Notes under the pieces: generated by a model
What the model saw: only the letters and a program-made list of their open reading frames with translations
What the model was told of the DNA's origin: nothing
The model's database searches: none
Part shown: in pieces, positions 1-14,759 of the stretch
How positions within the stretch are numbered: position 1 is the stretch's first letter
Layout of the letters: the number at the start of each line of letters is the position of its first letter
Position numbers and translations under genes: made by a program
DNA from: a bacterium
GTDB lineage: Bacteria > Babelota > Babeliae > Babelales > RVW-14
DNA: 14,885 nt
Direction of reading: 5' to 3'
NCBI GenBank assembly: GCA_043822925.1
Contig: JBDRBF010000029.1
Span: 1 to 14,885 of the forward strand

Positions 1-333
1 TTGTTATTTCAGTTAACTTATTAAACAAAAGACAAAGCGCTTTTTCATCAGCGTCAATTAGACTTATACTGGGATTTTCATTGAACTCTTTTAATTTTAT
101 TTCCTTCTTCTTTCCAGAACCCGCCGGCCCAGAAAGCCCGCTAATTCCCCACGCACCTCACCAAACTTCTCGGCCAACGAAACATACTTACCCTTCAACA
201 CTGTCAGCGATTTTGTTAAACTACCGACCTGCGCCGTAAGATCTGCTTTAAGCGCCGGCAGCATAAAAATAAAGCCCAAAACACAAAGCACCTGGCGTAC
301 AAGAACTTGACGCACCACAAAACCATTCTTCAC
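1..333 (-). pseudogene. Exported protein with the shared N-terminal helix, apparently frameshifted near 137-139. ORF 97..333 is the 5' part; a second frame stays open from 157 to the window edge.
   Basis: GTG start at 333 with GAGG upstream. Hydrophobic signal peptide ending LKA, then DLTAQVGSLTKSLTVLKGKYVSLAEKFGEVRGELAG. The annotated frame stops at 97-99, but the -1 frame reads LSGPAGSGKKKEIKLKEFNENPSISLIDADEKALCLLFNKLTEIT without a stop to position 1. It could instead be an intact 78-aa protein or a sequencing error. Confidence 0.55.
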
Positions 334-521
334 AATCTCTTCTGCCTCGCTTAAATAAAAACCCCAAAAATACTATTTTTTGAGCATTAACAGTTGGAAT
401 TAAAGCCTAAAACAGATTTCTAACCATTTTCAACAGTATGCTTTTTTTGCCGGTATGATATGTTCTAACTTATTCTGAAACAAAAACACATAGGTTCTCA
501 ATTTAATAAAGGGTTCATGCC

Positions 522-1181
522 ATGAAAATTTTTTTAGATACAGCCAATAGAGAATTAATCCAAAAATGGGTACAGACAGGCCTGGTCGATGGCGTTACAA
601 CTAATCCATCGCTACTAAGCAAAGAAGGCAGAAACAGCAAAGAAGTATTGCTTGATATTTGCAGCATAGTTCCAGGAGACGTGAGCATAGAAGTTATAGA
701 AAAAACGCCGGACGCCGTCTATAAACAAGCGCTCGAAATTTCAAAACTTGCACCCAATGTTGCCGTCAAGATCCCGTTCGCTCAAGAATATTTGCCCGTG
801 ATAGCACAACTGGCCAAAGAAGGCGTCAAACTTAACATCACCCTTATTTTCTCCCCCCTACAAGCTCTGGCTGTCGCCAAACTTGGTGTCACGTATATTT
901 CCCCATTTATTGGCCGACTGGACGACATAGGCGTTAATGGACTTGAAATTGTCGACGAAATTTTAACGATCAAAGATAACTATGGCTTTACGTCTGAAAT
1001 TATCGCAGCATCAATACGCAGCATGATCCATTGGAAAGAAACAGCACTTTCTGGTGTTGATATCGCAACAGTCCCCCCACAACTTATGGACCAACTTATG
1101 ATTCACCCACTCACAGAAAAAGGCATCGAGATTTTTGATCGTGATTGGAAAAAATTAGGCAAAGAAAATTTACTTGATTAA
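522..1181 (+). CDS. tal: Transaldolase (small TalC/FSA-family type)
   Basis: Motifs MKIFLDTAN, GVTTNPSL, Schiff-base Lys83 in VKIP, NITLIFS, YISPFIGRLDD and AASIR. Glu57 and Phe129 match the transaldolase signature rather than the Gln/Tyr pair of fructose-6-phosphate aldolase. Confidence 0.95.
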   Translation: MKIFLDTANRELIQKWVQTGLVDGVTTNPSLLSKEGRNSKEVLLDICSIVPGDVSIEVIEKTPDAVYKQALEISKLAPNVAVKIPFAQEYLPVIAQLAKEGVKLNITLIFSPLQALAVAKLGVTYISPFIGRLDDIGVNGLEIVDEILTIKDNYGFTSEIIAASIRSMIHWKETALSGVDIATVPPQLMDQLMIHPLTEKGIEIFDRDWKKLGKENLLD

Positions 1182-1221
1182 CCCCTTCGACAAGCTCAGG
1201 GTGAGCGCAATCTGGGATAAC
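1182..1221. repeat. Short REP-like intergenic element CCCTTCGACAAGCTCAGGGTGAGCG followed by a half-copy (TCTGGGATAAC) of the GTCATCCCAG palindrome
   Basis: GC-rich imperfect hairpin directly after the tal stop. 1211-1221 matches 3480-3490 at 10/11. CTTCGACAAGCTCAG is a widespread bacterial intergenic repeat motif (from recall, not searched). Confidence 0.6.
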
Positions 1222-1303
1222 AATAAAAAAACATAAATTATCTTGAAATATTATAAAAGCACATTACGATGAAGACAGATTAAAGAGAGTAGTAATGAAG
1301 AAG

Positions 1304-1341
1304 ATAAAAAACCCAGGAATTTAAATTCCTGGGTTTTTTAT
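1304..1341. terminator. Bidirectional intrinsic terminator (perfect 38-bp palindrome)
   Basis: ATAAAAAACCCAGGAATTT|AAATTCCTGGGTTTTTTAT with A6 and T6 flanks, between convergent tal and the 644-aa gene. Confidence 0.9.
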
Positions 1342-1387
1342 TTAAACACTCATGCGCTTTTAAATTAACGTTACGCACACTTTTTTA

Positions 1388-3322
1388 CTAATGTTTTGAC
1401 CATCCCCCATCTTTAACAAGCTTGCCCCATTTCTTAAAAGTTGCGTTCACTTTAAAATCATCAAAAGATGCATGCTCGCCTATTTTTTCAAGAACAGCAA
1501 AACCACCATTATTCTTAACTTGAGATACTGCAACTTGCCCGTTAATATTATTTATTCGTTGCCATTCATACAAAATAAGTTCTATCGACTCATCTTTTAT
1601 TAATTGATTTCGTTCTGACTTTCGTTCTTTATCAAAGAAAAATAAAAGAGCCTCTTTATTAAGTGTTTTTTCAAACATGGGAAATAACACGTCATTAATA
1701 AGTTTTCCACATGGTTCAGCAGCTATTCCTTGTAAATTTACATCAAGAGCCGTAAAAAGATCCGCCTTCAACCCAGGATTGTCTTCACATGCCTTTATAT
1801 AAGCCTCGGCTGAACTCCACAGATAAATTTCCACATTATCAAACCATTCAGCAATAGCATAACACCCATGCATATAATAATGCTTTTCCTCTGTCGTTCC
1901 GAACACTTGCCCTGGAATTTTATATGTTTCTTTTGTCTCACAGTCAAAAAGGGAATCTCCGAGCTTTTTTAATTCACTTTTAAAGTCACCAAAACCCTCT
2001 TGTATCCATTTAACACCACAAGTCTCCATTGTTTTTATATAATCAAAAACATCTTTATAAGAGAGATCTATAAAATTTAATCTAAATGTTTTAAAACCTT
2101 TTTTTCTTAATTTTAAAAGAACCTGAAATACCGGCCTAAACTTTCCACTCGCAAAATCTGTAAAAACAAAGCGCTTATCTTTATCTTTAAATATCTCGTC
2201 TGTTTTCTCCGCCACATGATTTTCAAACAACTCCCGCACATAACCATATTCCATTGTCAAAGTATCAGGTTTATACGCAGATCTCGTAAATGGACACCAC
2301 TTTTGCGTGCATTCTTTTAATGCTCGTAAATAATACGGATCTTTGCCGTCAAAATTTTCTTCATTTCCAACGTTCTCAATTTCCGTAAAAAATGTATCAA
2401 AAAATGTATTTATATACGGCGTCTTAATCTCTATTTTATTTTCGACTGGAAATGTCCAGCCTTCAAACTCAGAATCTTCTCTAAACTTATCATAAAAAGT
2501 TTTGTATATTCCTAGTGTTTTTTTAGCGGATTCTTTACCAAGTTCTAAATCAGTCTTAAAAACCAATTTTGCGCCAACATAAACTTCTTCCTTCACGCCC
2601 CCTTTTTCTTCGATTCCTTTAAATAGTTTATCGATGCGAACCCGAGGCATCGTTTTGTCTTTTTCTTCTCCAAGTCGCCTCTTTCTTTCTTCCTCTCTTT
2701 TTCTCGCTTCTTCTTCTTCTATTCGATCAGCCTCTTTCCAATACGGCTTTGAAGTTTCAAGTTCGAGTTTACGCCTTAAATCATCAAGATTTCCTAATAA
2801 CTTATCACAAGCAGGTTTCAATTTTTCATCATCTAGGAAGAGGCTAAACCATTGAACATTATAATATCCCGGTATTGTGTAGTTTAAAAAACTTTTAATG
2901 ACACCTCTGCTTGGTTTTTCTTTTGCTAATTCTATGCCTACATCTATAAATAGTTTTTTAAATTTATCTGGCCACCAATCGTTATTAATAGCCATCATCT
3001 GTCGTTTTTGGGTCCCTTGGGCATCGTTAGGCAAGTTTTCAACAGCATCTTGAATTGTTTTTATCGCCGAATCCATATCTGTTACTTCAAGCAAGTCTTT
3101 CTTGCCCGCAAGATTACCCTTAACCGTGTTCAAATTAGTCGCCAAAAGTATAAGTTTAGTTTTAAGTTGCGTTAAAGAGGCTTGAAGTTTGCCAATTTGC
3201 TCAGGCAAGTCAGCTTGCAAGCATGTTTGCCCACCAAAAATAAAGAGAAAACACAAAACAATAAAAATGTATTTTTTTGAATGATCGTACAGGTCAATAT
3301 GCGAATTGATTGAACATTTCAT
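1388..3322 (-). CDS. Exported hypothetical protein (644 aa): signal peptide, shared N-terminal helix, charged linker, C-terminal class I SAM-methyltransferase-like domain
   Basis: Long ORF. Signal peptide ending CLQA; shared helix aa 38-73; E/R/K-rich stretch EEEEARKREEERKRR. FVFTDFASG (motif I-like, D389) is followed by a helix and RLNFID (acidic end of beta2, D419), and later KADLFTALD. The function call is tentative. Confidence 0.8.
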   Translation of the reverse strand: MKCSINSHIDLYDHSKKYIFIVLCFLFIFGGQTCLQADLPEQIGKLQASLTQLKTKLILLATNLNTVKGNLAGKKDLLEVTDMDSAIKTIQDAVENLPNDAQGTQKRQMMAINNDWWPDKFKKLFIDVGIELAKEKPSRGVIKSFLNYTIPGYYNVQWFSLFLDDEKLKPACDKLLGNLDDLRRKLELETSKPYWKEADRIEEEEARKREEERKRRLGEEKDKTMPRVRIDKLFKGIEEKGGVKEEVYVGAKLVFKTDLELGKESAKKTLGIYKTFYDKFREDSEFEGWTFPVENKIEIKTPYINTFFDTFFTEIENVGNEENFDGKDPYYLRALKECTQKWCPFTRSAYKPDTLTMEYGYVRELFENHVAEKTDEIFKDKDKRFVFTDFASGKFRPVFQVLLKLRKKGFKTFRLNFIDLSYKDVFDYIKTMETCGVKWIQEGFGDFKSELKKLGDSLFDCETKETYKIPGQVFGTTEEKHYYMHGCYAIAEWFDNVEIYLWSSAEAYIKACEDNPGLKADLFTALDVNLQGIAAEPCGKLINDVLFPMFEKTLNKEALLFFFDKERKSERNQLIKDESIELILYEWQRINNINGQVAVSQVKNNGGFAVLEKIGEHASFDDFKVNATFKKWGKLVKDGGWSKH

Positions 3323-3463
3323 AACAAAGCCCCCCGGCTTAACAAGTATCCCCTATTTTCAGCACCACTCACGCATGCAAAGCCAATATCTGTTTTATAT
3401 TAATAGATTACGTTGGATGGATAGATAAATTCAAGAACAAGAGAAATTGGGGGAATTTGGACT

Positions 3464-3490
3464 TGGATCCCAGATCACGTCTGGGATGAC
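3464..3490. repeat. 27-bp palindromic intergenic repeat (reverse complement GTCATCCCAGACGTGATCTGGGATCCA)
   Basis: Stem ATCCCAGA/TCTGGGAT with a 5-nt loop. A near-identical interrupted copy lies at 9085-9144. Confidence 0.85.
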
Positions 3491-3540
3491 AAAATAAAAA
3501 CAAGCGCCTGTATACGGGCTCCGAGTTATTTCACAAACTA

Positions 3541-3570
3541 TTGCACTCAAAAACTTAAATTATCCATACT
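3541..3570 (+). promoter_or_regulatory. Putative sigma70-type promoter TTGCAC-18-CATACT for the 381-aa gene
   Basis: Hexamers at 3541-3546 and 3565-3570. GGAGG RBS at 3611-3615 before GTG 3622. A 10-bp palindrome TAGTGCACTA lies at 3587-3596. Confidence 0.5.
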
Positions 3571-3621
3571 GAAAACAATAAAACACTAGTGCACTAAAAT
3601 ACTGATACACGGAGGGACGCT

Positions 3622-4767
3622 GTGTTAGTCAAAACAATTAATAAAAAATTTTCTTGGTCCAAAACGGTCAATAAAAGCCAGTTAATACTGTTTCTCTTAA
3701 TATTTTTTATTACTTTTTTACCTAATCAACAATGTCTATATGCAGCCAAAGAACCACTCACCACAAATGTTAACCAACTGACCCAGTCTTTAACTCTTCT
3801 GCGCAATAAATTAATAGAACTTGCTACACAGTTACAAAAAACAAAAGACGCTTTCGGAGAAGAAGAACTCGCCTCAAAAACTTTTTTTGGACAGATTTTA
3901 GTAAATAAGGGAGCCGTAGAACAAGAAGACACTGTTAATAATACAAAATTTTATAAAATAAAAGTACTCGCTCAAAACGGAAATCAACCTAACTACAATA
4001 CCCACGGAGCACAAGAACTTGACGCGCTCAAAAAAGGGTACGGCTGCAGCTTCCACGCACAAAAAAATGCACTCTATATTTGCAAAATACTCTTAGAACA
4101 GGGAGACATCAATACAAACAGAGAAGCACTCTCTTCAGTGCCAATTTTTTTACATCTCTTTGAAGCGCCACTCAAAACGCTGCTTCCCCCTGAAACGAAA
4201 AGCACAGAAAAAACATATTGGAAATATAGATGGCCAAATGACAGAGGCGCCCAATCATGGTTCCCTGTATCAAGCGCTTTTCGCGTAAAACTGCCCCATT
4301 TAAGCGTGGTAAAAAAATGGTGGGATCTCTCCAAGCACGGCCCACCCGCAACAGAAAAATCAGAAATAGATAATCTCATAGAAAAGATTAAAGAAGGCCA
4401 AGCCCTGGCCCCAGACGAAGCCTCAATTAAGATAACAAAAAACATAAAAGTTATTCAAGCCGTTCCATACATTCTCTCGAACTCATATGCAACAGAGAGA
4501 AAAAAAAATTTTTATCCACCATTACAAAACGAAGATATAAATAAAAGCAAAGAAGCACTTAAAGATGCAAAAGAAAAACTCAAAAAGAATAAATCACTTC
4601 TCATGCCACTACTCATCTCGTGGGAACATGTTGAAGGTAGACACTGGGTTGCCGTTATTATTAATAAAATTGATGAAAAATTCGAAATATTTTATGCAGA
4701 CTCGTGGGTTGGAAGCCACCCCTTAGATAGAATAACCCCTCTCATTAAACATCTCACTGACAATTAA
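3622..4767 (+). CDS. Exported hypothetical protein (381 aa): signal peptide, shared N-terminal helix, putative papain-fold cysteine protease (Josephin/deubiquitinase-like)
   Basis: GGAGG RBS. Signal peptide ending CLYA; shared helix aa 45-79. GCSFHAQKN (C142) precedes HWVAVII (H341) and FEIFYADS (D360), in Cys-His-Asp order. Confidence 0.8.
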   Translation: MLVKTINKKFSWSKTVNKSQLILFLLIFFITFLPNQQCLYAAKEPLTTNVNQLTQSLTLLRNKLIELATQLQKTKDAFGEEELASKTFFGQILVNKGAVEQEDTVNNTKFYKIKVLAQNGNQPNYNTHGAQELDALKKGYGCSFHAQKNALYICKILLEQGDINTNREALSSVPIFLHLFEAPLKTLLPPETKSTEKTYWKYRWPNDRGAQSWFPVSSAFRVKLPHLSVVKKWWDLSKHGPPATEKSEIDNLIEKIKEGQALAPDEASIKITKNIKVIQAVPYILSNSYATERKKNFYPPLQNEDINKSKEALKDAKEKLKKNKSLLMPLLISWEHVEGRHWVAVIINKIDEKFEIFYADSWVGSHPLDRITPLIKHLTDN

Positions 4768-4771
4768 CTTT

Positions 4772-5521
4772 TTATTCCCCAAAAAGATCTTTTAAAAAAT
4801 CTGGGAGCATGCGCCAAAACATAGCGCCGATATCGTTTACTGCTTCTGGGGTTGCCCACGGCCCAGGCTTTGGGCCAGCACCAGGCTTGCCATAAGAAGA
4901 ACTGTTTTGAGCCGCACTATTTTGAGAAATATCACCATGAACAGGTGTGCAATATTGGGTCTTTAATTCAAAAAAACGAGCATCGTATTTTTCACCGACA
5001 TCTTTGTCATCTAAAATAATTACATTTTCTTGGTTACGCTGGGCTGATTTTGTCCAATTAAAAGATCCGGTCCACGTTGTACCATCAATTATCGCAAACT
5101 TATTATGCATAAGCGGCTCAGACCCGCCAAAGCCTTTTGATGTATCATGAGAATGATACTCAAAAACCTGAACACCATTGCCCCTCATATACGCACCTTT
5201 ACCATACGAGCTATCAACAGAAATTTTATCTGTTACTACTTGCACGTCAACACCGCGTTTTTTGGCATTAATTAACGCATCAGCAATATGCTTATCAGTA
5301 ATCATGTATACAGCTGCGTGAATTTTCTTCTGTGCCCCATTTATCATAGAAATAAGCATGGTTGCTGGATGGTCTTTTGGGGAAAATAAAACAATAGGCG
5401 AAGTGGCCAGTCCAAACGATCCCCAAGACAAATAAACTAAAACAAAAAATACTGTTTTTGTTAAACGAAAAAATACTTTTAAATGCTTTTTTATGCCAAA
5501 AGAAAATGTCATATATACCAA
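4772..5521 (-). CDS. Phospholipase D / Nuc-like (PLD6/Zucchini-type) single-HKD enzyme with N-terminal hydrophobic segment
   Basis: Motifs FSPKD, IHAAVYMITD, ALINAKKRGVDVQVVTD, MHNKFAIIDG (HxKxxxxD), WTGSFNWT and NQEN. The start may be ATG 5512 rather than TTG 5521. Confidence 0.92.
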   Translation of the reverse strand: MVYMTFSFGIKKHLKVFFRLTKTVFFVLVYLSWGSFGLATSPIVLFSPKDHPATMLISMINGAQKKIHAAVYMITDKHIADALINAKKRGVDVQVVTDKISVDSSYGKGAYMRGNGVQVFEYHSHDTSKGFGGSEPLMHNKFAIIDGTTWTGSFNWTKSAQRNQENVIILDDKDVGEKYDARFFELKTQYCTPVHGDISQNSAAQNSSSYGKPGAGPKPGPWATPEAVNDIGAMFWRMLPDFLKDLFGE

Positions 5522-5659: not shown

Positions 5660-6202
5660 ATGAAGATCAATTATTCTCGTTATTTTCTATTTGTACTGGC
5701 ACTTATATCGGGAAAAACATATGGAGCCGACCCCGCAGAAGTACAAAAAATATACAAAAGTATTGAAGAACAACTGGTCGAAATTAGAAAAGAACACCCA
5801 ACAACACAACAAAAAATTTACACAATTCTTGATCAAGTTAATAGGCTATCGTCACTTGCCAGTTCTTCAGGAACAAGAATTCAACATCTAGAAAAAGAGA
5901 TTAAAACAAAAGAATCAGAATTCAACATAATTCAAGACGAACTCATAAAATCAAAAAAATCAGCCCAAGAAACAGAAGATAAGATTAAAACACTAGCCAA
6001 TAATTTTGAACAAGAAAAAAAACTAGCTCAGCAACTCGCTCAGGAAAAGAAAAAAACAGAATTACTCGCAACACAGCAAAAAAAAGATTACGCACAAGAA
6101 CAAGCTCATAAACAAGAGCATGCAAATCTTCTAGAGAAACTGGGACAAAACCAGATTCAAGAATCTGGACCAGACTTTGAACAAAAAAACGGAAAAAAAT
6201 AA
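5660..6202 (+). CDS. Exported coiled-coil hypothetical protein (180 aa)
   Basis: AGGAG upstream, signal peptide (MKINYSRYFLFVLALISGKTYGA) and a Q/E/K-rich heptad-like body. Confidence 0.8.
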   Translation: MKINYSRYFLFVLALISGKTYGADPAEVQKIYKSIEEQLVEIRKEHPTTQQKIYTILDQVNRLSSLASSSGTRIQHLEKEIKTKESEFNIIQDELIKSKKSAQETEDKIKTLANNFEQEKKLAQQLAQEKKKTELLATQQKKDYAQEQAHKQEHANLLEKLGQNQIQESGPDFEQKNGKK

Positions 6203-6211
6203 AACCAAGAA

Positions 6212-9079
6212 TCACATCTTGAATCGTAATTCTACTTCAGAACCAATCTCACCACGCTGGTCTTTGACGAATTTAAGATTAATGTCATCAGAAAGTAGAT
6301 ATTCGACCTGGAAACCAAAGTCGTCTTGTAAATCAAAATTCTTTTGGATTTGGGCATGAAGTTGCTTGCCCAAATCTACAGATATGACCCCTTTGATGCC
6401 TCCACGTCCAGACTGATCAATAAAATTTGGCGTAATTTGAACATATTTTAATGGTCGAGCCAGTTTTTCAAAAAATGCATTTGCTTTGGGAACTACTTTG
6501 TTATTACCCAAAAGAAGTAAGTGCAAATTCTGCATGATCATAGAAGACAGATTTGTTTGCAACGTTGCATTTTCTGACCCGGCCAAAATTAATCCCAAAA
6601 CTTGCTCTTCACGCAACGTCGGAGAAGATTCAAGCAAAATATTCGGCTTCTGCAAAGAACCAGTCGCCTGCAAACTTACGGTATATTTATTAATTCTATT
6701 TTTTGCGATTAAATCAATTAATGGATCATGCAAGTGTGAAGGCACAAACTGAATTTTTCCATATTCAATATATAACTTGTTATCCAAAAACTGCAGAAAC
6801 CCGCCTTCTAAATTAATATAGCCCTCTAATCTTGGCGCTTCATCATTGTTTAAATATTCTATGAACATATCAAGATTTGCATGGGTATCAAGCACTCCTG
6901 TTTGTACGTGTATAGGCTTATCACAACGTACACGCAAGCTAAAATCGAAACCATTCTCATGAGAGCTACCAAACTTAAACGGCCGATCAACTAAGCTCTC
7001 TACATTATCTTGAGCAAACGGGTTATTTTTTAATAGCGACTTTTGTAATAAAATATCACCATCTATCCGAACAAGACTTCTTGAGTTCTTGGAACACATA
7101 AATGACCCACTAATAAACCCATAAAAGTCATTTTTCCAATTAACAAATAGATTCTTAAATTCAATAGGAGCATGCACTGAACTGAGTGCGTAATTATCAT
7201 CAAATTGTGCAACTATTTTGGCACTATGTGCATGCCCATTAAAAAAAGATACATAGGGTTCTTCTAATTCTATTTTTTTTGATACAGTATGAATTTTAAA
7301 ATTCGCTTTAAAGCTTTTAATTATATTACGAGCCTCAGGAACATACAAACGACCCTTATTTAACCAAACCGTTCCCGTTAACGTTTCAATATCATCTTGA
7401 TTAACGCTAATTCCAATATAAGAATGCGATCCTAAAACTGCTCTTTGATAATTTTGACTCAGTAACGACTGAATAAAAGAAAAATGAGCAACGCCAACAA
7501 GCTTTTTATGCTCAAGATCCCCAAGCTGCAAAGAGACGAGTTGTTTACTATTTTTCCAGCAAGAAAAACTTTGTAAGTATGGTTTTGCATTAAGCACCAC
7601 AACGCCATCATAACTTCCCTCAAGCGCCTGGCCATCAAAAGATAAGCTTTTTTTGTCTGGACCCAACGCAAAAGCACCATCTAAACTCATGTGATCGTCA
7701 GATATTTTCTTAAACGCTTTAACTTGATACTTGCCTGATATTTTCTCTTTCTTTCTCATTACCTGAACGCTCACTTTTTTAGGACCAATCTCCCATGATG
7801 ACGCTTTTTTCCCTTGGTCTCCAAAAAAGTTTAATGGTGCATTGTTTGATAAAATAAGCGATTGTTCATCTTTTTTTCTGTTCCAATTAAATTTACCTGT
7901 GCACGCTAGCCCCGGCTTATAAACAGCCGTAACACGTGAAGAAATAGTGTCACCATTTACAGATATCCCATTCAACCCAACTAAAGGCAAAGAAAAACAC
8001 CCATAACGTATCTTTTTAAGATACACATCTGCGTGCGCTGTAAAAACATCACACGCTCTTTGAATATCACACGTAATAGAACAAACACCCCCAAAATCTT
8101 TCGCTGGCGTTTCGTCTATATTGTTTAAAAGTGCATACGCACGATAGATAAGCGCAACCGGCATAGATCCAGAGATATTAATAATATCTTTCTGGAAAGC
8201 GACAGAAATATCAAGATCCCGGCTGGAAAGCCGAAATTTAGGACAATTATTACCCCAAGAACCATTAAGTACATGTGTATCTTTTTTAGGATCAAGAGGC
8301 TCTAAAACAAGAGGCTCTAAAGATGCCCGATCTTTTGTCACAGCTTGTTCTTTTTGTTGTACAATATGCGTAAAACGGTCAGCAATCGTAACGGTCCATG
8401 TCTGATCGAGATCCAATTTGTGAAAATTATTATTTCCAGCTAAATCAGCAATAAGTTTTTTGCCATTAAGAAAAACATCACCCCGCTTAGAAACTAAAGA
8501 TCCACGCCATTCTGGAGAACTTTGTGACAGCTTAGAATCTAAACGACGCAAAATAAAATCACCGACACAATCAAATGCTACTGTTTTATTTTTTTGTATA
8601 CTCTCTTGCCCTGTAACAATATTCGCTTGCACATTAATATTATGAACAGCTATCGATGCACATACAACTTTCAGTCCCTGAGAATCTGTATTAAAAATGT
8701 CCCCAAAATGGGTAATAATATCAAGCCCACTATTCGAATAGCCTGTTATAATCTTGCCATCATTAAACGTCAAACTTAGCGTTAACTGTTTTTTGAAAAA
8801 CAAATCAAATAAAGAAATATGAATATATGCTTTAGAAAATCCCCAATCACAATTTTGCTTACCTGACTTAATTATCCCATTTTCAAACTCTAAGTTTCTG
8901 GTAATAAAATTTATGCGTGCTTCTTGAACAATAATTTGTGCATTCCATTTTGTTTGTAAATAAGTAAGAATTTTTCTCGTCATAGCATTTTGAATACGGT
9001 TATTTGTTTGCAACACAAAAAATGCCGTAATTATGCTTATGATAAAAAATATAACTATATTTTCGAGTACTTTTCTCAT
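6212..9079 (-). CDS. tamB: Translocation and assembly module TamB-domain protein (AsmA-like)
   Basis: N-terminal membrane anchor and a long beta-rich body. The C-terminal TamB/DUF490 pattern reads PRLEGYINLEGG...YGKIQF...DPLIDLIA...VSLQATGSLQKPNILLESSPTLREEQVLGLILAG and ends in beta strands. Confidence 0.85.
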   Translation of the reverse strand: MRKVLENIVIFFIISIITAFFVLQTNNRIQNAMTRKILTYLQTKWNAQIIVQEARINFITRNLEFENGIIKSGKQNCDWGFSKAYIHISLFDLFFKKQLTLSLTFNDGKIITGYSNSGLDIITHFGDIFNTDSQGLKVVCASIAVHNINVQANIVTGQESIQKNKTVAFDCVGDFILRRLDSKLSQSSPEWRGSLVSKRGDVFLNGKKLIADLAGNNNFHKLDLDQTWTVTIADRFTHIVQQKEQAVTKDRASLEPLVLEPLDPKKDTHVLNGSWGNNCPKFRLSSRDLDISVAFQKDIINISGSMPVALIYRAYALLNNIDETPAKDFGGVCSITCDIQRACDVFTAHADVYLKKIRYGCFSLPLVGLNGISVNGDTISSRVTAVYKPGLACTGKFNWNRKKDEQSLILSNNAPLNFFGDQGKKASSWEIGPKKVSVQVMRKKEKISGKYQVKAFKKISDDHMSLDGAFALGPDKKSLSFDGQALEGSYDGVVVLNAKPYLQSFSCWKNSKQLVSLQLGDLEHKKLVGVAHFSFIQSLLSQNYQRAVLGSHSYIGISVNQDDIETLTGTVWLNKGRLYVPEARNIIKSFKANFKIHTVSKKIELEEPYVSFFNGHAHSAKIVAQFDDNYALSSVHAPIEFKNLFVNWKNDFYGFISGSFMCSKNSRSLVRIDGDILLQKSLLKNNPFAQDNVESLVDRPFKFGSSHENGFDFSLRVRCDKPIHVQTGVLDTHANLDMFIEYLNNDEAPRLEGYINLEGGFLQFLDNKLYIEYGKIQFVPSHLHDPLIDLIAKNRINKYTVSLQATGSLQKPNILLESSPTLREEQVLGLILAGSENATLQTNLSSMIMQNLHLLLLGNNKVVPKANAFFEKLARPLKYVQITPNFIDQSGRGGIKGVISVDLGKQLHAQIQKNFDLQDDFGFQVEYLLSDDINLKFVKDQRGEIGSEVELRFKM

Positions 9080-9156: not shown

Positions 9157-9711
9157 TTATTCCAGTCCCATTATTTCCCACTTCCCAGTACCCCAACGAT
9201 ACTTTCTCACACAGGCAACAGGCGACACAGAACAAGTAACTGCCCCCATAAATTTCTTATGCTTATCAGTTAAATATACAGTACCGGGGGACATTTTGCC
9301 ATCGGGTAAGCATATTGCACAAGAAACACCCCAATTCTCCTGAGAGTTTGACTGAAAAGTTACAGCCTGGCTAATTATTTGGTTTGGACTTGCCGGGGGA
9401 CCCTTTACCGTATCAATAAACCCAATATTTATAGGGTCACTGAGCTTATTTATACACGTTTTACCCCCAAGCCCAATATACGAATACGCATTTTGGCTTA
9501 CATCAAACGTAATTTTTTGAGTCTGCCCAGAAGCCATGGCTTTTTGCTGAACGTATAAAAAACCAATAACAAGCTTATTTAACTCAGAATTAAGCATATA
9601 ATCTGGTGATTTAATAAATAAAGGTGCAACCAAAGCACAGAGTGCAACAAAAACAGCCAAAACTACCATTAATTCGATAAGAGAGAACGCTTTTTTAAAA
9701 CTTTTACCCAT
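9157..9711 (-). CDS. Prepilin-type N-terminal cleavage/methylation protein (GspH/FimT-like minor pseudopilin)
   Basis: MGKSFKKA|FSLIELMVVLAV: class III signal with Glu+5 and a hydrophobic helix. The helix and strand QKAMASGQTQKITF and DGKMSPGTVYL are GspH/FimT-like. Confidence 0.85.
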   Translation of the reverse strand: MGKSFKKAFSLIELMVVLAVFVALCALVAPLFIKSPDYMLNSELNKLVIGFLYVQQKAMASGQTQKITFDVSQNAYSYIGLGGKTCINKLSDPINIGFIDTVKGPPASPNQIISQAVTFQSNSQENWGVSCAICLPDGKMSPGTVYLTDKHKKFMGAVTCSVSPVACVRKYRWGTGKWEIMGLE

Positions 9712-11337: not shown

Positions 11338-12480
11338 TCACTTTTTATACAAGATATAGGCATCTGTAACCGTAGGCAAATTCCCCATAGATTTTCTAAA
11401 ATCTTCCCGGCTAGAAAAAATACCTGCAAAATAATCAAGCTTATACAAGTTCTTCACAAATGCACCGCCAGTATCAGCCATAACGCCAAGGCGCATTTCA
11501 GGCTTTTTTGTTTTGGGATTAAGATACGAAAGCGCAATAATTTTACCGATACCAATATTATAAATATCACCAGCAAAGACAATGCCCTTGCGCTGGATAC
11601 AATGGGTATAAAGTTCTTTAAACTGGTTACCCTTAATTTCACAAAAATAAAAAACTTTTTCACTATCTTTCATTGTTTTATATGCGCTCATTTTTTGGGG
11701 CAAGTGCAACCGAAAGGCTTTGATTGCATTATTTGGACCATTTTGTACCGTTTTACCAACAGGATTACCAGACATTTTAACAAAAACAGTACCTTGCATG
11801 AGGGCATCTTTATACCCAGCCTCAGTAAGCCACGCAAGCACGCCTGAGCGTACAACTTTAAGTTCGTCATCATAAAATGGCAAACTCATAAGCGGCTTAC
11901 AAAATTCTTTTGTTTTTTCATAACGTCCAGGAAACTGGAATACAGCGTATTGAGTAAGACGTATTTTACCCGGCCGAAAAAAAATATCGTTACGTTTAAG
12001 CGCCGTTTCATAATCGCCGGACCACTTTATACACGAAAAATTTCTAGCAATAAAATCAGGGTCATTAATCCTGAATTTGCCTTTTTTCTTATCGTTTTCG
12101 ATCGCTTTTATTATAAACTCAAGCGTTTTTTTCACATTACTTTCACCAAAATAACGCTGACTAAATAAACGCGGGGCAAACACATGCTTATGTGTTGCCT
12201 GAAACCTATTTATATACTCAAGTGTATCGCGCGCCACACACTGCAAATATAATGGATCTGTTTCAATTGTTTCATATTTAAACGGCGCACGAACAAGAGG
12301 CGTAAAACATTTTTCAACGCCATCTTTTTTGACCAATTCTTTTATCTTTTCCGGATCCATTTGACCAGAATGTACCGTTTTCATTTGATCAATAGAAAAA
12401 GCTTGTGACCTTTGACTAAAAAACAGCCAAAAAAACGCCCCTAAACACGTGAGAAATAAAGCCCCTTTTAACTTTTTCAC
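11338..12480 (-). CDS. mltA: MltA-family lytic transglycosylase-like protein (3D domain)
   Basis: C-terminal GVMADTGGAF...KLDYFAG is the MltA/3D catalytic signature. LTQY and ALMQGTVFV resemble the MltA TGYY and QGS motifs. The start is moved from 12585 to GTG 12480, which follows a G-rich SD-like run and begins a signal peptide ending SQA. Confidence 0.8.
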   Translation of the reverse strand: MKKLKGALFLTCLGAFFWLFFSQRSQAFSIDQMKTVHSGQMDPEKIKELVKKDGVEKCFTPLVRAPFKYETIETDPLYLQCVARDTLEYINRFQATHKHVFAPRLFSQRYFGESNVKKTLEFIIKAIENDKKKGKFRINDPDFIARNFSCIKWSGDYETALKRNDIFFRPGKIRLTQYAVFQFPGRYEKTKEFCKPLMSLPFYDDELKVVRSGVLAWLTEAGYKDALMQGTVFVKMSGNPVGKTVQNGPNNAIKAFRLHLPQKMSAYKTMKDSEKVFYFCEIKGNQFKELYTHCIQRKGIVFAGDIYNIGIGKIIALSYLNPKTKKPEMRLGVMADTGGAFVKNLYKLDYFAGIFSSREDFRKSMGNLPTVTDAYILYKK

Positions 12481-12626
12481 GAGTCCCCCCCCTAAAATTA
12501 GCTTCTCCCCTTTTTGTACGTATTTCTTAACTAGTTTAGGCCGATAGAGGGAAAAATAGTCAAGAGCCCTGTTTTTTGCACACAAAACCCGCCTACCACC
12601 AAGTTTTCTATTATTGGGTATTATTA

Positions 12627-12761: not shown

Positions 12762-13919
12762 ATGAATTTTATTAAACGTTTTTTTAACAAACCAACCCAA
12801 AGCTTCTTTCTTTTTGGCCCGCGCGGGACCGGAAAATCAACCCTCGTTAAAGCGTGCTATCACAATGCACTCTGGATAGATCTTCTGAATCCAGAAACAC
12901 TCCGCAGTTTCAGCGCACGGCCAGAACGCCTATTTGAGTTTGTTGAAGCAAACCCAAACAAAAAAACAGTCGTCATCGATGAAGTACAAAAAGTACCTTC
13001 GCTTTCGAGTGTCGTACATGCACTTATAGAAAAGGACAAAACAGTGCAATATATTCTAACCGGCTCAAGCTCACGCAAACTCAAACAAATGCAAGGGGAC
13101 TTGCTTGCCGGACGAGCGCTCAAAAAACAACTCCACCCATTTATGGCTGCAGAACTCGGCAGCCTTTTTTCTCTAGAAAAGGCACTACAAATCGGCATGC
13201 TTCCCGTTCTTATGGAGGCACAAGATCCTGCGAGCGCACTACAGGCATATGTTGGGCTTTATCTAAAAGAAGAAATACAGGCCGAAGGCCTTGTAAGAAA
13301 CCTGGAAAGCTTTTCCCGCTTTTTAGAAGTTATCAGCTTTTCACATGCATCAACACTTAACGTCACGAATATATCCAGAGAATGCGAAGTTAAAAGAAAA
13401 ACAGTAGAAAACTATATCGAAATTTTAGATGAACTACTCTTAACCTACAGTCTTCCTGTTTTTACCAAACGCGCAAAGCGCGATCTCAGTTCCCATCCTA
13501 AGTTTTATCTGTTCGATTCTGGTGTTTTTAGAGCCCTGCGACCCAAGGGAATACTGGATAAAGTAGAAGAGATTGAGGGAGCCGCACTTGAGGGACTCAT
13601 TGTGCAACACCTAAAAACCTGGAACGACTACAGTACAGAAAATCACGACTTAGCCTTTTGGCGTACACGGTCAGGACTGGAAGTCGATGTTATTGTGTAC
13701 GGCCCGCTCGGGTTTTGGGCAATCGAAATAAAAAATGCGAAAAAAGTTCACTCAGTCGATATTAAACCACTTGAAGCATTCTTGGAAGATTATCCAATGG
13801 CAAAAGGCCTTCTTCTTTACCGTGGGCACGAACAGCTCATGATCAATAACATCTTATGCATGCCGTGCGACAAATTTCTTATGGACCTAAAACCAGATAG
13901 CCCATTATTGCCAGAATAG
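12762..13919 (+). CDS. AAA_14 ATPase with DUF4143 and C-terminal PD-(D/E)xK-like nuclease motif
   Basis: Walker A GPRGTGKS, Walker B VVIDEVQK, TGSS and LAGR. An HTH-like segment NVTNISRECEVKRKTVENYIEIL is followed by KFYLFDSG and EVDVI...AIEIK. Confidence 0.93.
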   Translation: MNFIKRFFNKPTQSFFLFGPRGTGKSTLVKACYHNALWIDLLNPETLRSFSARPERLFEFVEANPNKKTVVIDEVQKVPSLSSVVHALIEKDKTVQYILTGSSSRKLKQMQGDLLAGRALKKQLHPFMAAELGSLFSLEKALQIGMLPVLMEAQDPASALQAYVGLYLKEEIQAEGLVRNLESFSRFLEVISFSHASTLNVTNISRECEVKRKTVENYIEILDELLLTYSLPVFTKRAKRDLSSHPKFYLFDSGVFRALRPKGILDKVEEIEGAALEGLIVQHLKTWNDYSTENHDLAFWRTRSGLEVDVIVYGPLGFWAIEIKNAKKVHSVDIKPLEAFLEDYPMAKGLLLYRGHEQLMINNILCMPCDKFLMDLKPDSPLLPE

Positions 13920-14117: not shown

Positions 14118-14759
14118 ATGGAAAAAACACGCGACAAAAAAATACTCCCCCTGTTTACTCTTCTCTCTGCTCTTTTTATTTTTTCCTGCACGAGCTTTAA
14201 CTGTTACAGCATGCAACAGAAAAAAACAGAAGAAGAGGGAAAGATAGAGGAAAAAATGGGGGGAAAGATCCTTTATTTTAATATAAAAACAATAGGCTCC
14301 ATCGCCAAATCTTTATCTGATTTAAAAGAATCCATCCCCAAAATCTACACAGACCTAAAAACTAACGGAGAAGAACAGTTTGGAGACTACCTGGAAAAAT
14401 CTGACACCTGGAAAGAAATAACAAAATTAAAGGAAGAAAGCGACACTTTAATAACAAATTTAGAAACCGAATTAAAAAAAAATCAAAAAGAAGCTGCTAG
14501 CACTGATTTAATAAAAAAAAAAGAAGCCGTCGAAGAATATTTCCATAATTTTTCTAAAATAAAACAAGCAGCAGAAGCCCCTGATAAATGGATAGAGATT
14601 TTTAATAAAAATAATGAAAACATAACACCTATTAACTTTTTAATATTTAAGGGTTTCCTGGAGGGATCAATTTTTGGAATAGAAAATGAAATAAAAAAGC
14701 TTACAGAAGAACAACAAAAAGTAAAGTGCACCCCTTCGTCAAGACCATTTTTACCCTAA
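14118..14759 (+). CDS. Exported helical K/E-rich hypothetical protein (213 aa)
   Basis: AGGAG RBS, signal peptide (KKILPLFTLLSALFIFSCTSFNCYS|M) and a predicted all-helical body. Confidence 0.8.
   Translation: MEKTRDKKILPLFTLLSALFIFSCTSFNCYSMQQKKTEEEGKIEEKMGGKILYFNIKTIGSIAKSLSDLKESIPKIYTDLKTNGEEQFGDYLEKSDTWKEITKLKEESDTLITNLETELKKNQKEAASTDLIKKKEAVEEYFHNFSKIKQAAEAPDKWIEIFNKNNENITPINFLIFKGFLEGSIFGIENEIKKLTEEQQKVKCTPSSRPFLP

Follow-up and report, generated by a model that had tools for sequence, protein, structure and literature searches.

Three neighbouring genes at the start of the window (the whole stretch of DNA analysed, which is the first 14,885 bases of contig C29 in a draft genome of 1.52 Mb, 37% G+C and 86 contigs, 92% complete) encode proteins in which a signal-like N-terminal segment is followed directly by the same amphipathic helix, and this helix, the tag, recurs in about 28 genes of the genome. 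The tag occupies definite positions in its proteins, is conserved on one helix face through selection acting on the protein, accompanies mostly unrelated, fast-changing cargo, and is restricted to one clade of intracellular, Babeliales-like bacteria (Dependentiae). We propose, with a probability of roughly 0.4, that it is a coiled-coil docking element, which brings a subset of exported eukaryote-like effectors to one common partner after Sec export. Throughout, G000 is the window's own genome, G001 to G048 are the other sampled genomes, and the prefixes C, L and g denote contigs, loci and genera.

A shared helix in three neighbouring genes

The three open reading frames (ORFs) differ greatly in size. 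ORF A (97..333, minus strand, 78 residues) is a leader-only frame, made up of a signal-like segment (residues 1-30, nucleotides 244-333), the tag and a 17-residue tail before the stop codon. ORF B (1388..3322, minus strand, 644 residues) consists of a signal-like segment (residues 1-37, nucleotides 3212-3322), the tag and an orphan cargo, and ORF C (3622..4767, plus strand, 381 residues) of a signal-like segment (residues 1-42), the tag, a linker and a cargo resembling Ulp1-like cysteine peptidases. The tag copies lie at 133..249 in A (minus strand, 39 alignment columns, E 5.7e-15), at 3101..3217 in B (minus strand, E 5.7e-16) and at 3748..3864 in C (plus strand, E 1.4e-14), and with a hidden Markov model (HMM) built from the three helices the copy in A scores E=1.1e-23. 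In all three, the hydrophobic signal-like segment ends in L-K-A, L-Q-A or L-Y-A-A with the helix directly after it, and the predicted mature proteins would start at D31 (A), D38 (B) and K43 (C).

A first-pass annotation of the window, made from the sequence alone, had reported the same helix after a signal-like segment in these genes, with a core at 136-243 in A, and we confirm this observation: the helices are homologous and the ORFs are as described. Its count of 18 identical residues among 36 for A and B holds, and the similarity of B and C also stands, with the count corrected from 13 to 12 of the first 26 residues. Similarity ends after the helix, as had been noted, since A, B and C with the helix masked have nothing in common (BLASTP, 1e-3). 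A profile check of the window ORFs found no further one with the tag motif.

Size and specificity of the tag family

The search set comprised 5,237 six-frame ORFs of at least 50 residues, with a threshold of E<=0.01. The first-pass annotation had allowed that a profile of the three window helices might find only these three; 23 of the 5,237 ORFs were matched, and a residue-shuffled copy of the ORFs gave 0 matches with the same HMM. Iteration of the search converged after three rounds on 26 ORFs, and a translated scan of the whole genome gave 30 matches, which represent 28 genes because two pairs of contig ends overlap by exactly 141 nucleotides and two genes are counted twice. Roughly 2.5% of ORFs are tagged (about 28 genes), and the genes are partly clustered, with three in the window and three on contig C63. 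The 141-nucleotide overlaps join the contig ends C81/C33 and C10/C35 inside tagged genes, and tagged genes are often found at contig breaks elsewhere (C36, C14, C64); the assembly seems to be fragmented at these genes by repeats or close paralogues.

The 26 copies align without gaps over 39 columns (alignment A2), and a second profile of 52 rows (A4) includes rows from relatives that were picked with a profile trained on the window's own genome. Reversed ORFs gave 26 matches, compared to 29 for forward ORFs, and they are unusable as a null because the motif is almost palindromic around column 20 (A2/A4 columns 4-36), with L18-K19-x-K21-L22 at its centre and S14/A26 and L15/L25 as mirrored pairs. 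The near-palindrome may reflect heptad symmetry alone, or it may hint at antiparallel pairing.

None of the 26 copies, when the tag alone was scanned, reaches the gathering cut-off of a Pfam-A family. Generic coiled-coil families appear below threshold, namely CLZ (PF16526) for 7 of 26 copies, FlaC_arch for 3 of 26 and others for at most 2, and the best CLZ match, by copy B, has E 0.0023 and 14.9 bits where the cut-off is 26.7. A search of the PDB with the tag profile gave no significant match, the best being the zipper of a cyclic-nucleotide-gated (CNG) channel (3swy, E 0.54), and the statement of the first-pass annotation that the helix is not a recognised domain agrees with both searches. 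Exported coiled coils of this genome do not all belong to the tag family, because the tag profile fails to match two further ORFs of the window with a signal and a coiled coil, at 5660-6202 (plus strand, 180 residues, E 64) and 14118-14759 (plus strand, 213 residues, E 120).

Position of the tag in its proteins

In the 28 genes, the tag follows the signal peptide in 14, lies at the extreme C-terminus in 10 and stands between domains in 4. N-terminal tags start 3-12 residues past the hydrophobic core of the signal and would become the mature N-terminus, C-terminal tags end 3-6 residues ahead of the stop codon, and the tags of the four internal cases have Pro-rich linkers on both sides. The same positional rule is followed in five related genomes, where 26 copies divide into 6 N-terminal, 15 C-terminal and 5 internal ones, several of them behind UCH domains. 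The expectation attached to the first-pass annotation, that a profile search would find many proteins with diverse domains and the helix always behind a signal peptide, is thus borne out for the number and diversity of the proteins and fails for the position.

Judged by a hydropathy heuristic, 25 of 27 tagged ORFs have a signal-like N-terminus, compared to 52% of 1,077 background ORFs. One tagged UCH gene (G000:C35:5927-7690) has an in-frame TAA that separates the part with the Cys box from the rest, and is either a pseudogene or affected by a sequencing error; in G006, a relative, a UCH protein combines a signal peptide with the Cys box and a C-terminal tag. A lipoprotein anchor was considered for the small tagged proteins (C81/C33, and L098 in G016) and rejected, as their Cys segments depart from a strict lipobox and cleavage at an A-x-A-like site directly before the tag is equally likely.

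Anatomy of the helix and selection on one face

The tag is about 33 residues long, equal to five heptads, and has ten consecutive hydrophobic a/d positions in 3-4 spacing, with the consensus x3-L-x3-I-x2-L-x2-S-L-x2-L-K-x-K-L-V-x-L-A-x2-L-x2-V-K-x2-L. Its heptads are unbroken, number at least four, and carry Leu, Ile, Val or Phe at a and d, with a charged residue at a or d in 0 of 52 copies, a pattern that would be expected of a coiled coil. Expressed as mean information per heptad position, conservation is high at a (3.35 bits), d (3.44), e (2.77) and g (2.50) and lower at b (1.73), c (1.58) and f (1.35), and K19, K21, L15 and L25 are at least 90% invariant in the 52 copies. Positions e and g are 43-48% Lys or Arg and 3-4% Asp or Glu, the few acidic residues being placed at b, c and f, and the net charge of the core averages +3.6 (range +1 to +6). 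Copy-to-copy identity is 0.52-0.56 on a/d/e/g, far above the 0.12-0.16 on b/c/f, and we conclude from this difference that the copies are old and have been held by selection on one face of the helix. All six Leu codons occur in the two invariant Leu columns, and third codon positions are near random (identity 0.47, 0.63 and 0.32 at the three codon positions), so that selection acts on the protein and not on DNA or RNA.

In a model of mature C made with AlphaFold2 (AF2) from a 3-row alignment, with a mean predicted local distance difference test score (pLDDT) of 45.7, the tag forms an uninterrupted helix (model residues 2-37, pLDDT 66-81), and the linker behind it is modelled with low confidence. 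The overall fold is too poorly modelled for fold comparison, and the model is used here solely for the helical state of the tag. Complex predictions with three tag copies (A4) scored 0.26 and 0.23 against a mark of 0.42, and are counted neither for nor against association. SNARE-like motifs of intracellular bacteria have a heptad region of about 60 residues with a central polar (Q/R) layer, and the tag, with 33 residues and no polar a or d layer, is not of this kind. In genus g15 (L035, L040 and L055 of G014), the tag contains an extra partial duplication of its central heptads, for example L-K-D-K-L-V-x-L-R-G-S-L-V-T-L-K-D-K-L-V-T-L, and the within-genome tag identity in G014 (0.70) is the highest seen.

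Cargo of the tagged proteins

Pfam families found in tagged proteins are ankyrin (three genes, one of which also has a calcineurin-like phosphoesterase), leucine-rich repeats (LRR), IBR (half-RING), the UCH deubiquitinase, Macro and, in C, Peptidase_C48. Pfam assigned no family at E<=0.001 to 17 of the 27 scanned proteins, which were tagged or near threshold, and for one more the sole match, to DUF5921, is below the cut-off. With the tag masked, paralogous cargo (1e-3) was found for C and C38:34676, C26 and C2, the three ankyrin proteins, C77 and C32, and C23 and C5, and most of the cargo is otherwise unrelated. Of the genome's five ankyrin ORFs, three carry the tag, and untagged UCH and ankyrin proteins are also present. 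The IBR cargo has no homologue in the 34 other genomes of the family at 1e-8, and that of C was found in 2 of 35 family genomes; the cargo turns over faster than the tag.

ORF B has no Pfam family and no relative in the PDB, and its residues 80-644 have no homologue besides themselves. For residues 340-620, approximately, the Atlas rows name a class I S-adenosylmethionine (SAM)-methyltransferase-like fold, with a best template modelling (TM) score of 0.70 by target and 0.32 by query, values by query of 0.30-0.37 over the rows, and a pLDDT of 0.44 for the Atlas model. A class I methyltransferase-like fold for B is a weak lead, and the label "MTase-like" that B had received in the first-pass annotation is reduced to that.

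For C, described there as "Cys-protease-like", Peptidase_C48 is matched above its cut-off (E 1e-5, 25.9 bits against 20.7), but over positions 51-134 of 217 of the profile only, and the classical order His-Asp-Cys within one domain was not found in C. The matched part includes His341 in R-H-W and Asp360 in D-S-W (4642..4701, plus strand; Pfam and alignment), and C ends 21 residues past Asp360. Its sole invariant Cys, the candidate nucleophile Cys142 (4045..4047, plus strand), is located upstream of both in the motif G-C-x-F-H, so that the order is Cys-His-Asp. G-C-x-F-H, R-H-W and D-S-W are all invariant in an alignment of three sequences (A5), namely C, its paralogue C38:34676-37096 and a homologue in G006, and the latter two keep the tag directly upstream of the peptidase domain. 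A general homologue search with the cargo of C returned the query alone.

Circularly permuted Ulp1 homologues with signal peptides are described for Babela massiliensis (PMC4378268), and the Cys-His-Asp order of C, a predicted peptidase, fits this permuted form. The cargo of C resembles these Babela homologues in its C48 match over the His/Asp half and its upstream invariant Cys, and C likewise has a signal peptide; in contrast to it, the Babela proteins are fused to an AAA ATPase domain, and the searched passages on them mention no coiled-coil tag. The paralogue C38:34676-37096 (L008) contains two permuted Ulp1-like domains, each with G-C-x-[FY]-H, H-W and D-S in this order, on either side of an internal tag, and the G006 homologue (P0032) begins a further permuted Ulp1-like domain after the first.

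Distribution across relatives

When 1.84 billion representative proteins were searched with the A2 profile, 31 matched at E<=1e-3, comprising 24 proteins of the window's own genome, 3 near-copies from elsewhere (91-99% identical) and 4 repetitive coiled-coil proteins, which have 4-10 matched stretches each and no counterpart in the own genome. Among whole genomes, 8 of the 24 others in the family contain weaker matches to A2, and none of 16 from the order's other families has any. The A4 profile detected the tag in 13 of 35 family genomes at 1-29 copies each: 29 in the own genome, 17-26 in g7, 12-19 in g17, 7-14 in g16, 8 in g15, 3 in g4 and 1 in g19, where the g19 genome is 58% complete, as is a g7 genome with 21 matches. 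Twelve genera of the family (22 genomes) are negative with A4. Five of the positive genomes supplied training rows for A4; G015, G041, G046, G047 and G048 did not, yet they have 7-21 matches. In a sample of 201 genomes from the phylum, the tag was found in 10, all of this family, and in none of the 177 that come from 19 other families. Public records of tagged proteins in Babeliales relatives name the products "hypothetical", "ankyrin repeat" or "ubiquitin carboxyl-terminal hydrolase". For RuvA, named genome records contain only distant matches, at 27-33% identity.

In a tree of TamB from 30 family genomes, all 11 tag-positive rows fall in one side of 19 rows (support 88/87), and the other side, of 11 rows, has none; the tree is of one gene with a midpoint root, and requires 3-4 gains or losses of the tag. 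Thirty UCH loci were examined, and C-terminal tags were seen in five positive genomes. The UCH proteins of the nominally negative genomes G001, G004 and G007, which belong to the same 19-row side, end in heptad helices that resemble diverged tags. Two of these score E 0.014 and 0.036 and the HMM does not match the third, and because of these ends the tag family may be wider than the profile detects. Tag identity is 0.38-0.70 within genomes and 0.32-0.47 between genomes, and for 37 of 52 copies the nearest tag comes from the same genome.

Possible function of the tag

The gene content of the genome fits Dependentiae, which are described as having small genomes, ATP/ADP translocases, duplicated gspD in their type II system and numerous ankyrin proteins with signal peptides (PMC4776705, PMC6561590, PMC4378268). 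At least five genes of the ATP/ADP-translocase family are present, as are three secretin and three GspE/PilB-type ATPase genes, and the window encodes a pseudopilin and TamB. The markers of type III and IV secretion VirB4, VirD4 and FHIPEP gave no match in the genome, which is 92% complete. The type II-like machinery that the first-pass annotation had invoked is accordingly represented, in the form of type II or type IV-pilus-like parts, and Sec is present as well. Secretin genes were found in 35 of 35 family genomes, whether tag-positive or not (2-4 matches; three in 31 of 35).

In the docking model that we tentatively favour, a signal peptide would carry the protein across the inner membrane, and its cleavage, or a free C-terminus, would leave the helix exposed on a flexible linker. 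The helix face, with Leu, Ile or Val at a/d flanked by Lys, Ser and Ala at e/g, would then pair as a coiled coil with a partner that all tagged proteins share, which could be other tags or one bacterial or host protein, and unrelated enzymes and repeat proteins would thereby be collected at one place. Such docking to a shared partner is suggested by the location of the tag at chain ends or on linkers, selection on one face, uniform e and g residues, unrelated cargo and occurrence in one clade, taken together. Coiled-coil families that need orthogonal pairing vary their e and g positions, and the uniformity of these positions in all paralogues would therefore favour cross-association or a single receptor. 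We also count for docking the enrichment of the tag on ankyrin ORFs, the genome-specific flavours apparent when nearest tags are compared, and a probable recent leader swap or duplication in gene A (see below).

Several results weigh against this proposal. Signal peptides were called by a crude hydropathy heuristic alone, and three C-terminally tagged proteins (C32, C35 and C63:6720) have no clear signal, C35 being a broken gene. The hydrophobic periodicity of the tag peaks at 101.5 degrees, which lies between 100 and 102.9 and would suit a simple amphipathic helix as well as a coiled coil. When the ORFs of the genome itself were crudely scanned, position by position, for a possible partner in the form of an acidic heptad helix, no convincing candidate emerged. 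The likeness of tags within a genome could come from lineage-specific expansion rather than co-evolution with a partner, and it may be affected by the selection of the relatives' rows with a profile trained on the own genome. Finally, effectors of these kinds also occur in sister genera without a detectable tag (28 of 35 genomes have UCH), so that the tag is not needed for such effectors in general. A more elaborate form of the docking model, in which the tag is the address label of a new effector-handling system in a phylum limited to Sec and type II/type IV-pilus-like export, is unlikely as it stands: a position-independent Lys-zipper would load chosen eukaryote-like enzymes onto one receptor, this receptor (a bacterial surface, vesicle, secretin-associated or host coiled-coil protein) would decide which of them reach or stay at the host interface, and tag and receptor would co-evolve by genus.

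The first-pass annotation had regarded the helix as a tag for second-step export, recognition or oligomerisation, and this interpretation is partly supported: the confinement of conservation to a, d, e and g agrees better with recognition or oligomerisation, and nothing links the tag specifically to a second export step. As an export signal, the helix would be read in the periplasm by type II-like machinery or an adaptor and would mark proteins for passage through a secretin. The tagged proteins are of Sec type, and their eukaryote-directed domains have to get out of the cell; a free end is a suitable place for a tag to be recognised, the secretin, ATPase and pseudopilin genes are present without a match to the type III and IV markers, and type II is the sole secretion system reported for Babela (PMC4378268). 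Yet only about 28 genes are tagged although a large share of ORFs has signal-like N-termini, UCH and ankyrin proteins occur without the tag in the same genome, all 35 family genomes have secretins irrespective of the tag, and 22 of them have similar effector domains with no detectable tag. We know, moreover, of no linear signal in type II substrates, and we consider this explanation rather improbable. A similar standing is given to plain self-association, by which each protein would form its own dimer or trimer through a helix spread by domain shuffling, with no common partner and no sorting. The heptads running through ten consecutive a/d positions would serve this well, the small residues g14 and e26 face Lys e19 and g21 in a parallel register and, as we read it, would avoid Lys-Lys clashes, and the sub-threshold resemblance of 7 of 26 copies to the trimeric CLZ zipper (best E 0.0023) points the same way; near-invariant e and g positions over about 28 paralogues and several genera are, however, unexpected for independent zippers, identical zippers would cross-associate in any case, and neither the preference for chain ends nor the enrichment on eukaryote-like cargo is explained.

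The Lys-bordered Leu face could instead serve as a membrane anchor, by binding acidic lipids in the outer membrane, in vesicles or in an organelle of the host. Its net charge of +3.6, the placement of Lys at the polar/non-polar border (e, g) with acidic residues at b, c and f, which matches the class A amphipathic pattern, and a terminal position suitable for a peripheral anchor are in keeping with this; almost no aromatic residue other than F11 is found on the hydrophobic face, whereas strict 3-4 spacing is maintained over 33 residues, Ser14 and Ala26 are conserved, and the mean hydrophobic moment is a moderate 0.31, all of which make membrane binding distinctly unlikely. That there is nothing specific to explain, the helices being generic coiled coils, parts of ordinary full-length paralogues or a DNA or RNA element, has next to no probability left. 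True paralogue pairs do exist (A and C11:1724-2488 with LRR cargo, C and C38:34676, C26 and C2, and the three ankyrin proteins), but chance, ordinary paralogy and a nucleic-acid element are refuted by the 0 matches in shuffled ORFs, the 0 of 177 genomes outside the family, the dissimilarity at 1e-3 of most cargo after masking of the tag, a few pairs excepted, and third codon positions near random (identity 0.32).

Comparison with known systems

Polymorphic toxin and effector systems combine a shared trafficking domain with variable toxin ends. The tagged proteins are like these in having one conserved short module on many unrelated, fast-changing domains and in the partial clustering of their genes, and to this extent the polymorphic architecture named by the first-pass annotation stands. 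They are unlike them in that the tag, with no fixed N-terminal position, may stand at either chain end or internally, the cargo is made up of eukaryote-like domains for host interaction and not of bactericidal toxins, and the proteins have Sec signal peptides; no immunity-like partner is evident beside A, B or C in the window. The dockerins of cellulosomes, which bind cohesins, are Ca-binding duplicated loop-helix modules. In our working model for the tag, dockerins offer a parallel as small terminal modules on linkers that would bring diverse exported enzymes to a common scaffold, although the tag is a five-heptad helix and a crude search found no scaffold with repeated receptor modules.

Host-targeting motifs such as PEXEL of Plasmodium and RxLR of oomycetes are linear, 4-5 residues long and placed after the signal peptide, and PEXEL is cut by a protease. 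In 14 of 28 tagged genes the tag similarly stands directly after the signal peptide of unrelated, host-directed cargo, but it is an amphipathic helix of 33 residues and occurs just as commonly at the C-terminus. C-terminal sorting domains (the type IX C-terminal domain, PEP-CTERM and LPXTG) consist of a beta-sandwich or of a hydrophobic anchor with a motif; the 10 of 28 genes in which the tag ends 3-6 residues ahead of the stop codon of an exported protein recall these, whereas the tag has neither beta-sandwich nor anchor-plus-motif and also takes N-terminal and internal positions. With Leu at a/d and Lys at e/g, the tag resembles the "K-coil" of heterodimeric Lys-rich/Glu-rich zippers, except that the crude scan for an acidic partner helix in this genome found none, and its likeness to the trimeric CLZ zipper of CNG channels (PF16526), seen weakly in 7 of 26 copies, is below the Pfam cut-off in all of them. 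By these definitions, the tag lacks a defining feature of each of the polymorphic, dockerin, host-targeting and C-terminal sorting systems, and a conserved tag on diverse exported effectors is unusual both as a coiled coil and in occurring at either chain end. Full-text literature searches and searches within PMC6561590, PMC4776705 and PMC4378268 found no description of it; their supplementary family tables, which lay outside the search, could bear on this.

Dependentiae are widespread parasites of protists, and the genome papers report signal peptides on very many of their eukaryote-like proteins yet only Sec or type II-type export (PMC6561590, PMC4776705, PMC4378268). As a lead on how, or whether, such proteins are sorted and reach the host, the tag provides an easily searched sequence handle for predicting effector repertoires in one clade and a short peptide usable as bait for a partner, and, if its targeting role is true, a natural case of one targeting module at either chain end. 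Should it prove to be no more than a common helix for oligomerisation, it would still form an unannotated domain family and account for about 28 gene starts and ends per genome that are now "hypothetical".

Gene A and neighbouring genes

The cargo of A, "unknown" in the first-pass annotation, is present in another reading frame. Window positions 1-141 are the reverse complement of the first 141 nucleotides of contig C11, which indicates that the two contigs join there, and the frame that follows the helix of A, shifted relative to ORF A, is LRR-like, running on the minus strand from window position 139 to 2 (2..139 being its start) and then on into C11. This frame matches Pfam LRR_4 with E 9.7e-6 and 26.1 bits, just below the cut-off of 27, and is likely the original cargo of A. 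About 205 nucleotides at the 5' end of A, covering the upstream region, the signal and the helix, share ~93% identity with the corresponding end of the LRR gene C11:1724-2488, and the identity stops just past the helix, at a 7-nucleotide indel. Given the contig join and an LRR-like frame shifted at this indel, A is most simply read as a frame-shifted, or mis-assembled, signal-tag-LRR gene ~1.4 kb from its LRR paralogue, and the breakpoint right after the helix would mark a recent leader swap or duplication. Between A and the paralogue, within L101 (C11:1-1100), is an overlapping pair of genes on the minus strand that looks like a toxin-antitoxin-type pair, DUF5615 (PIN-like, E 8.7e-25, L101:432-797) and DUF433 (E 4.8e-24, L101:791-1051).

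Downstream of C, in convergent orientation and with 4 nucleotides between the stop codons, is a PLD-like gene (4772-5521, minus strand; PLDc_2, E 3.3e-27), whose product has a hydrophobic N-terminal segment and a Gly/Pro-rich tail without the tag, and is another exported, effector-like enzyme. Housekeeping and envelope genes stand beside the effector genes: TamB (6212-9079, minus strand), a pseudopilin-like protein with a prepilin-type N-methylation motif (9157-9711, minus strand), an MltA-like protein with a weak match to the 3D domain (11338-12585, minus strand) and an ATPase with AAA_14 and DUF4143 domains (12762-13919, plus strand).

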